Below, piece after piece: positions 8,885 to 33,364 of a stretch of DNA of 64,000 bases. The stretch spans positions 164,672,001 to 164,736,000 of the forward strand of contig OZ024740.1 of assembly GCA_964016885.1 (NCBI GenBank). Direction: 5' to 3'. How positions within the stretch are numbered: position 1 is the first letter of the stretch; each line of letters begins with the position of its first letter. This DNA comes from Eledone cirrhosa (lineage: Eukaryota). The notes beneath the pieces are model-generated. The model searched no databases and was not told the DNA's origin. It saw nothing but the letters and a program-made list of their open reading frames with translations. Position numbers and translations under genes: made by a program.

Positions 8885-9180
8885 TTAAAATACAGTGGGA
8901 ATACGAAGAAAGCAAGAACGGGGGGAGGGGTGTTTCCTCTATCAGTTGTCTACTGGAAGTCTCGGATATTTCTACGCTTTAAAGACAAGATATCTAACTC
9001 CAGGGCGTCAATAACTGGATAAGTTATTGGGAAAACGGAGGAAGGAGGGAAGGAAAGCAAAGGGGAAGAAATGAGAAAACAGTAAACATACAGCAAAAAA
9101 ACAACAACAACAAACCGAGCAACGTACGAGCAACTTAAGGGAAGGAAATCCAAGACCACTCGCTAAGAGAACTTAAGTTC
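8885..9180 (-). repeat. Interspersed family Y (other copies ~11080-11345 and ~32005-32260; hairpin at 32609-32695)
   Basis: Block atcagttgtct...gatatttc...agacaagata...aagttattggg shared by three places, each near TA repeats. Confidence 0.75.
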
Positions 9181-9612
9181 TATGGAGAGAGAGGGGTGTA
9201 GGGAGAGGGAGTGACCGGGAGAGAGAGGAGAGAAAGAGAGAGAGAGAGGGGGAGAGAGAGAGAGAGAGAGTTAGGTAAAATCCCGAACGCGGTACCAAAC
9301 GATTTCGGCTTGTGTGTTCAGCAAACCTTTTCAGGGATGTAGTAATTGCTAGGTCTTTAAAACTAGGTCACTAGTTTTGCTAGTGCCTTGGTAAAATTTA
9401 TCATAGTAGGTAGTAAGCTGAGCTGATGGAGAAAGTTAGATGGGGGCAGAGAATAGTAGGTGTATTAAAACAAGATAGGGATGAAGAGAAGTGGGTAATG
9501 TCTGTGGGGGTATGAGTGGTTAGTGTGGAGGTGTGGAGTAGGAAGAGAAGGAATGGAATGGTCATAGGAGTAGGGGTGGAGGTGGTGATTGATAAGACTA
9601 CCTACAGACAGG

Positions 9613-9802
9613 GCTGAGAAGCAAATCCTCTTTCTGCTGGAAGCAAATCCTCTTTCTGCTGGAAGCAAATCCTCTTTCTGCTGGAAGCAAATTCACTTTC
9701 TGCTGGAAGCAAATCCTCTTTCTGCTGAGAAGTAAATCCTCTTTCTGCTGGACTCTTTCTGCTGGAATCCAACAGAAAGAGGATTTGCTTGGAAATCACT
9801 AG
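9613..9802. repeat. 22-bp minisatellite (GCTGGAAGCAAATCCTCTTTCT)n derived from the apex of the 10627-10989 palindrome
   Basis: About 6 units of period 22, ending in ggactctttctgctggaatccaacagaaagaggatttgctt, which also occurs at ~10797-10837. Confidence 0.85.
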
Positions 9803-9834
9803 TTGAAGGGTGGGTATTTTAAAGAAAAGAATAT

Positions 9835-9990
9835 TTGGGCACAAGGCCACCTATTTTCGGGATGGGAAAGTCGATTAGATTGACTTCAGTGCATTACTAG
9901 TGCTTTATTTTATCCACCTCATAAGGATGAAAGGCAAAGCTAACCTCGGTGGGATTTGAACTCAATATGTAAAGGTAGACGACTCTATGC
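9835..9990 (-). mobile_element. tRNA-derived SINE (longer variant)
   Basis: gcacaaggcc...ggatgaaaggcaaagctaacctcggtgggatttgaactc. Confidence 0.8.
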
Positions 9991-10672
9991 AAAATAATAA
10001 GTTGATTTTCTAGAAGCATATGAGCAAATAGTTAAATAATTTAGTATGTAGATGGCTGAATAGGAATAAATAAAACAAAATAAAATCAAGTAAAATTTAA
10101 TATTTAAAAATAGATGATAAAATAGATAATATGGGAGGCTAACTTGTGTTATATGTAAGCATATTGCATACATACAAGCACACACAAGTATACGAAGATA
10201 TTTTAAAATATTTTACATAGAAATACATGAATAAATAAATCAATTAACACTTTAAAGAAAGGACTGGGGTGAAATGAGATAACATTTAGAGGGTAAGAAA
10301 ATGAGTAGATGGATAGATAAGTGTGTAAATTACATACACTAGGTGGGTAGGTGAGTGGATAAAATATGTACATATACCACAGGCGTGTGCAGACTTGTAG
10401 ACTTGTGCATGCACACACAAGCATAAGTGCATTCATACCTGCACGCGTACTAGTGTGCACACATATACATGCTTATTCAAATACTTACGTGCACATATAT
10501 ATATATACACGCACACATACACACACATACACATATATATATATATTTGAAGTAAGGTTGCTTGGATGCGCCCATAGGCGGTATGCCGGTTGAGCACTCT
10601 ATGCTCCTTTGGAGCAGAGTATGATAATATGGAAAACGAATAATCAGTGATGCACCGGAACACAATTTATTA

Positions 10673-10763
10673 GGTATTACAATTGTTTCTCCGGCGAACA
10701 GCTCGAGGTGCGGTCTGTTTGTGGATCGAACCTGACTCTGGATTCGCAAGTTCTTCAGATACG
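10673..10763 (-). ncRNA. Type I HHR with extended helix II (left arm)
   Basis: rc: gtat-CTGAAGA-[62 nt]-GAAAC-AATT-GTA-atac, then AATAAA. Confidence 0.8.
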
Positions 10764-10850
10764 TCTAGTGATTTCGAAGCAAATCCTCTTTCTGCTGGAC
10801 TCTTTCTGCTGGAATCCAACAGAAAGAGGATTTGCTTCGAAATCGCTAGA

Positions 10851-29945: not shown

Positions 29946-30392
29946 TATACATATACATTTATATATATATATATGTGTGTGTGTGTGTGCGCACATATAC
30001 ATATATATATCTATATATATATATCTATATACGTTTTTTTTAATAAATATTTTTATATTATTTTCCGTCATTTTTCATTTGACCAATTCTCCATCCAATA
30101 ACGGACCATTCATAAATATCTTATTTTATAAATCCTATGTCTCATAAATAATAAACCACTGAGGCGATCAGCGGTTACCACGAAACCCTGAGTAACAACG
30201 GAGTGTTATCTCAGAATTTAAACTTCACTTCTGATTTAAATAATTCTTTCCTATTTATAGTAGTTTCGCACATCATTTTATATATATTTATATATATATA
30301 TATAGTAATAATAATAAATTTGAAGACTAAAATCCAAAGAGGGCTCGATAAGGATAAATATATATCAAATATATAAGAACCGTAGAGCAAAT

Positions 30393-30517
30393 ATTTATTA
30401 AAATAACAGATTAAAGTTTAAGCAAAGAATCGCTGCTTTCACCTTTAACGGAAGATGCCGTTAAGGGTGAAAGCAGCGATTCTTTGCTTAAACTTTAATC
30501 TGTTATTTTAATAAATA
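30393..30517. repeat. Near-perfect ~60-bp-arm hairpin; family also at 53178-53240
   Basis: atttattaaaataacaga...taacgg (aagatg) ccgtta...tctgttattttaataaat. Confidence 0.85.
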
Positions 30518-31453
30518 AATATATATATATATATATATACATACATACACACACACACACACACATATATATTTATTTATATATATACACACATATACAC
30601 ACATATACACATATGTGTCATATGTGTCTGTACATATATATATATATATGAATGTATACATGTATGTGTGTTTGCATACATGTATATATTCATATACGCA
30701 CAAATAAACATCTCCCCCCCTCTCTCCCTCTCTCTCTCTCTCTCTCTCTCTCTCTCTCTCTATATATATATATATATATATATATATATATATATATATA
30801 TATATATATATATAGAGAGAGAGAGAGAGTGAGAGTGGGAGAGAGATAATTATATATATATGCCCATCAATAATATTGCACTACTGATAGGTTCTAGTGA
30901 AATCATATAGCAACTCTACTGCAAGCAGTGCTACGATTAATAACAAAAAAAATAATGTCAGTGTGATATGTGGTTATAGGGGAAGACTACTATTCCTTCT
31001 GAATCATATAGTAATTTTAGCAGACAATATTTCATATATAATAAGTTGTCGAACTAGTTGTCACAAATTTCGCCAAAATAGCCGATATCTATCTATATAT
31101 GTATCTGACCAATTTCGTAGAGCAAAATCAGCTGTCTGAGGCCAGGTTTATTGCTAATAATTCAAGATTCCTTCATAAGAATTGTTTTTGAAGGGAATAT
31201 TATATATATATATATATATATATACATATATATATATATATATATATATATATACATATATATATATATATATATATATATATATATATATATATATATT
31301 ATTGCTAATAATATATATATATTATTGCTAATATATATATATATATATTATTGCTAATAATTCAAGATTCTTTCATAAGAATTGTTTGTTTTGAAGGGAA
31401 TATTATATATATATATATATACATATATATATATATATATATACATATATCAA

Positions 31454-31641
31454 TAATTGTCTACTTTGGGCACAAGGCCAGCAATTATCTCAGTGTATTA
31501 TAGGTACTTTATTTTATTGACCCCGTAAGGATGAAAGGCAAAGTGAACCTCGGCGTGATGTGAACTCAGTCCGTAAAGAGACGCAACTGTGCTGAAAAGC
31601 ATGGCGTCCGACCCTCTACCGACACTGCCAATCCACCGCCC
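31454..31641 (-). mobile_element. tRNA-derived SINE, full length
   Basis: Tail, core and head (ctgccaatccaccgccc) all present. Confidence 0.9.
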
Positions 31642-31698
31642 TATACATATATCAATAATATTAATAATGCGAATCTATCTTTATAACCCCATATTTAT

Positions 31699-31753
31699 TT
31701 TATTATATATATTTCAAGGGTACCAACATTTTGGTACGCCCTCATCAGATAAA
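31699..31753 (-). ncRNA. Type I HHR (family shared with 58765)
   Basis: rc: tttat-CTGATGA-gggc-gtaccaa(aatg)ttggtac-cctt-GAAAT-ATAT-ATA-ataaa. Confidence 0.85.
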
Positions 31754-33364
31754 ATACAAAAGTTGTTTTATAAATAGTGACATATCCAAAAACAAGAACT
31801 CATAGTTTTAAGTTCTCTCTCTCTCTCTCTCTCTCTCTCTCTCTCTCTATATATATATATATATATATATATATATATATATATATAGAGAGAGAGAGAG
31901 AGAGTGTGTAATATTAATAATATTATACACACACTCTCTCTCTCTCTCTTTCTCTCTCTCTCTCTCTCTATATATATATATATATATATATATATATATA
32001 TATGTAATGAAAAATAAAAGTTACGGGCGAAAGAGAGGAATATCCATCGTCAGTTGTCTGCTAGGAATCATAGGTATTTCTTCGTGTTAGAGACAAGATA
32101 ACTCAGCCTAGGGCGAACAAGAACTAAAATAAGTTATTGGGATAAAAAAAGGGGGGGGGGATATGTAAACAGACACGAAACGTGAAGCAACGTAAAGAGG
32201 GGAAAAATAGGAAAAATATCAAGTCAACAACTCATTTCAAACGTAAGAACTGGCGAGTTTGACGAGAGAGAAAAAGACACTTCTTCGCTGTAGCAGTGTT
32301 AGCGGGAGAAGAGGCTGCGTACAGTGGCGGACGAGAGAGGAAGTGAGCTAGCGGAGAGAGGGTGACTAGCAGAGAGGGAGTGACTAGCAGAGAGGGAGTG
32401 AGTGAAAGTAACGGGAAGCCAGAAACAGATAGTTATAGTGGCAGGCTAGCCGAGAGAAGATGACTAGCAGAGGGCGTGAGCGGAAGTAAGAGGGAGAAGG
32501 ATAGAGAAGGTGGAGAGAGGATAACAACAAGGGGAGAGACAAGAGAGGGGTCACGGCGAAGAAGGAAGCTTATATGAATAAAATGGCGAGCCGTGTGGTT
32601 GTATTTAAGTATAATGAAAAATAAAAGTTACGGGCGAAAGATATGGACGATGGATAAACCTCTCTTTCGCCCGTAACATTTATTTTTCATTATACATAAT
32701 TGCTGACTTTGACCTTTTATCAGAGGTTTTCTAACTATGACCATATCATATTAATTTCAAGTACACAACATCAATAAGTACATAATCTGTTTTTTTTTTC
32801 TTTTTTAAAACGGAAGTGTTTGATTTGGTGGAGTTTGGGCTGTTATTTCTAGCAGAATGTGACCAAATAGAAGGTTCCTGAATAGGTAGAGCTTCCATTG
32901 TGTTGATCCAGTGTTGATTTGAAGTTGTTCAAGATAGACCTTAGTCATATTTATCTGACAATCACAAAGATCATGAGTAAGTCAAAGGAAACCGCAAATA
33001 TATAGAAACCTTTCACACGTTCTGAATCTAAAGTTGATCAAATTATCAAGTGAGGGCGTAGTAGGAATTTTGTGTCTGTAATGCTGTAAATATATTTACA
33101 CACGTGTAGGATTCATAGTGATAATAACAGAGCGATTGTAACAGAAATAGCAGTGTTTGTAGTGTTAATAGAAGTGGTGAGAATGTTAATAGTAATTTTA
33201 TTATCGATAGTAGCATATTTAATATTATTAATAGTACGTTTAGTAATAACAGCATGCCTTTTAATTATAATAGCAGTATTATTAGTATTAATAGTAGCAT
33301 TATTAACATATTATTAATAGTCGCATTATTAACATATTATTAATAGTATCAATTATGATATTAA

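Follow-up and report, generated by a model that had tools for sequence, protein, structure and literature searches.

A predicted core-opened hammerhead motif in S-G-C order, carried by a tandem mobile repeat of Eledone cirrhosa and probably linked to Penelope-like elements

The stretch analyzed here (the window, 64,000 nt of Eledone cirrhosa contig OZ024740.1, positions 164,672,001–164,736,000) has hammerhead ribozyme parts in a scrambled order at three places on the minus strand, 8938–8994, 11159–11214 and 32047–32100. This raises the question of what fold these parts make and what carries them. An initial annotation of the window had placed the three motifs at these coordinates, where they are indeed present. 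A pattern search of the window gives three matches (8942–8992, 11162–11212 and 32050–32100, all on the minus strand) and none in 100 shuffles; the pattern was derived from these same three copies, and genome-wide counts are the better test. An Rfam scan of the window at gathering thresholds gives no matches. Each motif spans about 105–115 nt and is embedded in a longer repeat. Directly observed are the order of the parts, the copy numbers, the tandem and inverted arrangement, the microsatellite ends and six covarying helices. The best explanation, which we consider probable, is that the motifs are decayed copies of a tandem mobile repeat. Its RNA is predicted to form a core-opened hammerhead in S-G-C order, likely self-cutting, and would be copied into (TA)n sites by a reverse transcriptase (RT) of the Penelope/Naiad type.

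The host genome is 3.0 Gb and microsatellite-rich. A pattern of the window type has 607 exact matches in it. Two variant patterns were altered on both sides of pairs, seeking independent changes; the one with a double change in stem III has 122 matches and the one with a double change in stem I has 6,224, and the reversed controls of all three patterns give 0. A core-free pattern that leaves GAAA and CUGAnGA unfixed matches 4,431 times, with a control of 0. The three motifs belong to related families of one mobile repeat with thousands of copies in the genome, a tandem carrier that the initial annotation overlooked. Outside the alignment described below there are also distant, decayed families in which the layout is kept and the helix letters differ (L150:1501-1586, L156:1501-1586 and L178:4920-5015). 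The repeat is also covered by contigs of X1 and X2, which come from one sample, possibly the assembly's own source; no core variant at 10% or more is present among the 40 of 42 rows listed, and this is not counted as independent support.

Alignment of the flanks of the copies gives six helices: P0, hairpin H, II, an interaction stem (Int) that joins I and II, III, and I. Helices I and III cross, and the fold is pseudoknotted. The 5'–3' order is P0a, hairpin H, IIa, Int-a, linker, IIIa, NUH site, Ib, linker, IIb, GAAA-IIIb, bulge, Int-b, Ia, CUGAnGA and P0b. Copy 2 (predicted ribozyme domain at 11153–11255, minus strand) is the best preserved of the three, with a full core and 33 of 34 pairs formed; the sole unformed pair is an A-C mismatch in Int. 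Its minus-strand segments are P0a (11255–11251), hairpin H (11250–11229), IIa (11228–11224) and Int-a (11223–11218), then a 3-nt linker; IIIa (11214–11210), C17 (11209) and Ib (11208–11203), then a 4-nt linker; IIb (11198–11194), an A, GAAA (11192–11189), IIIb (11189–11185) and a 3-nt bulge with GA (11184–11180); and Int-b (11178–11173), Ia (11171–11166), CUGAUGA (11165–11159) and P0b (11157–11153). By analogy with hammerheads, the predicted cleavage site follows AUC, between 11209 and 11208. The equivalent predicted sites on the same strand are 8989/8988 in copy 1 and 32097/32096 in copy 3.

The fold was compared over 58 genomic copies. These were hand-picked out of 155 of 195 cores because their upstream flanks are intact. 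Pairing is found in 91.5% of 1,956 cells versus 78.3% after shuffling, and the covariation score is 0.416 versus 0.182 for shuffled and at most 0.101 for slid controls. There are changes on both sides in 24 of the 34 pairs, and every helix has at least two such pairs. The initial annotation had proposed helix III with its NUH site and helix I directly before CUGAnGA, and had named covariation among genomic copies as the check; both helices do covary. Helix I is 97.4% paired with five of six pairs double-changed, helix III is 94.8% paired (three of five), and the Int stem is 94.0% paired (five of six). Stem II, the helix abutting G12, is 85.2% paired with two of five pairs double-changed, and its partner strand is not joined to A9. 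Pair 49-83 of this helix is U-A in 30 copies, A-U in 18 and G-C in 4. Pair 9-124 of P0 is G-C in 22, U-A in 17 and A-U in 9, and one subfamily has its P0 shifted by a column. A structure-blind ranking of 5,691 column pairs by mutual information (MI) with average product correction places predicted pairs at ranks 1, 2, 3, 5, 6, 7, 9, 16, 19 and 20. Ranks 1, 2 and 6 belong to Int and rank 5 to the P0 pair 9-124, and the ten together represent five of the six helices as well as the hairpin.

The helices could be an artefact of common ancestry in an ordinary repeat (a short interspersed element or a satellite), in which the hammerhead words are coincidental. The independent lineages are few, and parts of the motif were fixed in the search patterns. 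Nested folding programs also assign low probabilities to helices I and II (0.14 and 0.12), values that are uninformative because such programs cannot model pseudoknots. The artefact is largely refuted by the double changes in all six helices with slid controls near zero; the predicted pairs rank at the top in MI, and the same layout is found in distant Naiad elements, as far as their published tails were covered. We consider this explanation very improbable. The structure is very probably under selection.

The initial annotation had seen no convincing helix II, and this did not hold. The 5' strand of helix II is located upstream, not 3' of CUGAnGA. P0, hairpin H and the interaction stem had also been missed. 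Drift of the spacers at conserved length had been noted as well; the lengths are conserved, but the spacers do not simply drift. The 3' strand of helix II and a strand of the fourth helix lie within them, both covarying with upstream partners. The strand after CUGAnGA pairs with the upstream P0a and not with the strand preceding GAAA. Two placements of helix II downstream of CUGAnGA were rejected: GGA with GCGUA, because the strand there covaries with P0a, and a second GAAA of the kind present in minimal hammerheads of Penelope-like elements (PLEs), because this GAAA is not conserved. The consensus of a kink-turn is a 3-nt bulge with tandem GA/GA pairs. The loop between Int and stem III has a similar GA/GA arrangement with a 3-nt bulge in 33 of the 58 copies.

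The catalytic core is retained where the search did not fix it. Among 30 fetched core-free copies, 27 keep both GAAA and CUGAnGA, and the core changes are singletons. N7, H17 (A or C, never G), the linkers and stem I are split by lineage in these copies, and H17 is always A, C or U among the 58 aligned copies. A different reading is that the fold is truly hammerhead-derived but has lost catalysis, and serves as a 3'-end recognition structure for the RT of the element or another protein. The insertions end 10–110 nt beyond the motif, most copies carry an uncut junction, and P0, H and the kink-turn-like loop may resemble protein-binding features. The extra nucleotide of the viroid hammerhead is reportedly located between A9 and G10.1. 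One extra nucleotide in the core of a viroid hammerhead lowers the rate only moderately (PMC3376415). The core here is split at a place where known hammerheads tolerate only one or two extra bases, which also favors a non-catalytic role. Against such a role, all catalytic positions are kept across subfamilies, and N7 and H17 vary exactly as in active hammerheads. The same core retention is seen in the cnidarian and cephalopod Naiad tails covered, with unrelated helix letters. A purely structural role is rather unlikely in our judgment, and the repeat RNA probably self-cleaves after NUH.

The order of parts falls outside hammerhead types I–III and its helices cross, as the initial annotation had said; however, an order of this kind has a published name, type SGC (PMC10085705). 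In types I, II and III the circular order is C-G-S in a three-way junction, whereas the window motif is S-G-C with crossing helices. In Eckert et al. (2023, PMC10085705), blocks C, G and S are defined and assumed to be uninterruptible, and type SGC, with four helices, is validated from metatranscriptomes. As described there, type SGC (HRIMA-1 and variants) and the window motif have in common the S-G-C order, helices I, II and III, a further helix that connects I and II at their far sides, a short Ib-to-IIb linker and all core nucleotides. They differ in that the window motif has the 5' strand of stem II upstream; its chain is open from A9 to 10.1, a gap that P0 and hairpin H span. The open ends of type SGC are closed by a 3–6 nt linker in the window motif, and the latter is present in thousands of copies in an animal genome, unlike the metatranscriptome sources given for type SGC. 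Strict membership in type SGC fails because block C is interrupted, and an SGC-like mode of working is presumed. Type CSG, represented in the same source by two metagenome sequences, has the identical strand order IIa-Int-IIIa-Ib-IIb-GAAA-IIIb; the Int-Ia-CUGAnGA piece is shifted from the 5' to the 3' end in the window motif, and block C is split. The window motif can be derived from the SGC/CSG knot by circular permutation, with the opening inside block C.

Another possibility is that cleavage takes place only across units. Neighboring units or two RNAs would assemble a type CSG ribozyme, possibly aided by protein, and the repeat body would loop out between A9 and stem II. In a dimer or circle, pairing can occur between P0b of a unit and P0a of the unit that follows, which gives the CSG order. 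Spider and nematode Naiad tails, in the portions covered, are plain CSG, and PLE hammerheads that act as dimers are known. Yet all six helices can form inside about 110 nt of one copy, and the pairing in trans that the initial annotation had also considered is unnecessary. The Naiad consensus tails, as far as covered, hold one copy with P0 closed locally, and a circular monomer makes the within-unit and across-unit readings an identical structure. Cleavage restricted to assemblies across units appears improbable.

The carrier is non-coding, with one ribozyme motif per tandem unit, and the units are 66–77% pyrimidine on the ribozyme strand. Neighboring cores on the same strand are spaced 493–745 nt apart in 29 of 32 cases (the others are 397, 857 and 1030). 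Partial tandems and inverted pieces are frequent. The 3' ends of 183 cores are mostly +60 to +160 nt from the predicted site, with a microsatellite, (TA)n or (CA)n, directly downstream in 114. The 5' ends lie within -20 to +11 of the predicted site in 28 of the 183 versus 17 in -100 to -21 (binomial p 2.7e-6). At loci L097:1500-1570 and L069:1500-1580 there are head-to-head inversions with the junction within about 11 nt of the predicted site. Opposite-strand pairs 3–5 kb apart were considered as full elements and rejected, as they have no common open reading frame (ORF). The pattern of truncation, tandem and inverted copies matches that of Penelope-like insertions (PMC8557442) and of non-LTR (long terminal repeat) retrozymes. 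The non-LTR retrozymes of animals (Cervera and de la Pena 2020, PMC7229834; Li et al. 2026, 10.64898/2026.07.22.740005) are likewise non-coding tandem units of low GC content with one ribozyme per unit, thousands of copies and proposed PLE mobilization. They have type I hammerheads, units of 150–450 bp and circular RNA that has been shown, whereas the repeat here has units of 493–745 nt and a permuted predicted ribozyme. The best reading is a retrozyme-like, non-autonomous repeat of the Penelope/Naiad type.

Craig et al. (2021, PMC8557442) describe (TA)n as the target of Naiad PLEs and report that these elements have no canonical hammerhead, although some carry an 'HHR_half_core'. The last 480–600 nt of 19 of the 54 Naiad consensus sequences of that source were compared by eye, with record names mostly inferred from metadata order. 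Five of these tails (two octopus, one squid, one hydrozoan and one box jellyfish) have the full core-opened layout with unrelated helix letters. The octopus tails have a perfect 6-bp stem II and a hairpin loop equal to that of the copy 3 subfamily; stem II and the hairpin are weaker in the squid tail. Three of the 19 are plain type CSG, from a spider and two nematodes (the tails before Naiad_Lpol, Naiad_Hcon and Naiad_Asuum), and one further tail has the S and G blocks only. The (TA)n bias and the tandem and inverted copies described for Naiads in this source are common to the repeat. The repeats here are without an ORF, and they have no letter-level match to the Naiad tails covered beyond the core and hairpin loop. 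On these likenesses, derivation of the repeat from a Naiad element is probable.

No ORF with an N-terminal GIY-YIG and a C-terminal RT is joined to any repeat copy in the loci scanned. A search for an autonomous Naiad by an endonuclease motif gave four genome matches, all PLEs with a C-terminal endonuclease. The motif YDFSTLYT occurs three times in the genome (control 3), each time in a decayed remnant of Naiad-like type. One PLE family, present at L102:1-1330, L131:3250-6001 and L143, has long open frames and a type I hammerhead, and it has (TA)n tracts in common with the repeat. Its ORFs beside L102 and L131 were rejected as the carrier, as (TA)n lies between and the PLE has its own type I hammerhead. 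This (TA)n-associated family is a candidate trans-mobilizer of the repeat.

In the proposed mechanism, the repeat would originate from a Naiad tail and borrow a PLE enzyme. The core would fold in three dimensions like a hammerhead core; stem II would stack on G12, and A9 would exit into P0. P0 and hairpin H may splint the chain break between A9 and stem II, and the kink-turn-like loop may bend the Int stem against stem III. A tandem transcript would fold each 110-nt domain and be cut after NUH, releasing unit-length RNA. After two cuts the ends of the monomer would be held by P0, II, Int and III. This clamping of both ends by four helices would favor circularization, as in non-LTR retrozymes. 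A PLE enzyme would then prime just downstream of the motif at nicked (TA)n and copy one or more units.

Several points weigh against the explanation by a self-cutting, Naiad-derived mobile repeat. The search patterns themselves account for part of the core conservation in alignment A1. The covariation represents about ten related subfamilies with an effective number of 21, not independent events; the shuffle control ignores relatedness, and the structure was read off the same sequences. Half of the top 20 MI pairs fall outside the predicted structure and reflect common ancestry. Stem II frequently lacks pairing at its base (column 84 is A, U or C, and pair 53-79 is unpaired in 26 of the 58 copies); as the three central pairs also hardly vary, helix II rests on about two informative pairs here. 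The second GA of the kink-turn is absent in 23 of the 58. The chain break between A9 and 10.1 is at a junction assumed uninterruptible by Eckert et al. (PMC10085705), and a literature search found no hammerhead, natural or engineered, that has two helices inserted at this place. The peak of 5' ends could also be produced by microhomology of GAUAUC/GGUAUA with the (TA)n targets. Several 5' ends are 8–21 nt upstream of the predicted site, and overlapping fetched loci were only roughly deduplicated for this count. Ten of the 19 Naiad tails did not parse in the stretch covered. An intact Naiad with the motif was not found in the genome, where the tail motif and the RT motif each have 0 matches with patterns too narrow to show absence. 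The three Naiad-like RT remnants (L184, L185 and L186) are riddled with stops, are without the motif in about 10 kb each, and look far older than the youngest repeat copies, some of which are 96–98% identical to one another.

Published searches all depend on the block rule. A split between A9 and stem II violates it, which hides such motifs from Rfam and RNAmotif descriptors. A literature search that left most subscription papers outside turned up no description of this layout and none of permuted hammerheads in Naiads or in animal genomes. A wider claim, which we hold at slightly better than even odds, is that this is an active natural hammerhead with the catalytic strand freed from stem II and a two-helix splint, a seventh wiring beyond the six of Eckert. 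It would be the hidden ribozyme of part of the Naiads, from cnidarians to cephalopods (others being CSG), and would drive retrozymes of a new, circular-RNA class that number many thousands in an animal genome. Hammerheads that are not circular permutations of the known order have hitherto been known almost only from environmental RNA, and the animal repeat gives them a host and a likely job. If true, this would overturn the published statement that Naiads proliferate without canonical hammerheads, as non-canonical ones would be carried.

Copies 1 and 3 are less well preserved. The predicted ribozyme domain of copy 1 (8931–9036, minus strand) has 33 of 34 helix pairs formed, and its core reads CUGAUAGA, as the initial annotation had reported. 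This core carries one additional base, and because of it copy 1 is predicted to be dead, which is likely from its sequence. The domain of copy 3 (32040–32145, minus strand) belongs to another subfamily with UCGC/GCGA, CUAGG/CCUAG and GGAUA/UAUCC types. It carries GUUAUC/GAAAUACC, also as reported, and 5 of its 34 pairs are broken, which fits decay.

The repeat copies that contain these domains are all on the minus strand. Repeat copy 1 (8845–9180, its 3' edge approximate and set by eye) is 5'-truncated, ends at (AC)n(TA)n and has 75–87% identity to other genome copies. Repeat copy 2 (11085–11345, edges approximate) is 5'-truncated and flanked by (TA)n tracts. It adjoins a separate foldback element at 10616–10998, a near-perfect 187-nt inverted repeat with a 9-nt gap. 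Repeat copy 3 (32000–32641) is about one full pyrimidine-rich unit that ends at (TA)n, with 86.9% identity over 687 columns to locus L008. At its 5' end there is a short inverted piece of the same repeat (32646–32698, plus strand; 90.6% over 53 nt by blastn), an inverted junction of the Penelope type.

The window also contains a Penelope-like element at 19869–23240, with long inverted repeats and a GIY-YIG-like ORF at 21194–22063 (minus strand). No CUGAnGA is present between 19540 and 23690, and the tail of this element may accordingly hold another kind of ribozyme or none. At 253–259 (minus), 37919–37925 (plus) and 63960–63966 (minus), CUGAnGA is followed by a short hairpin and GAAA. These are ordinary type I hammerhead-like motifs of other repeat families, and all three are missed at the Rfam gathering thresholds.

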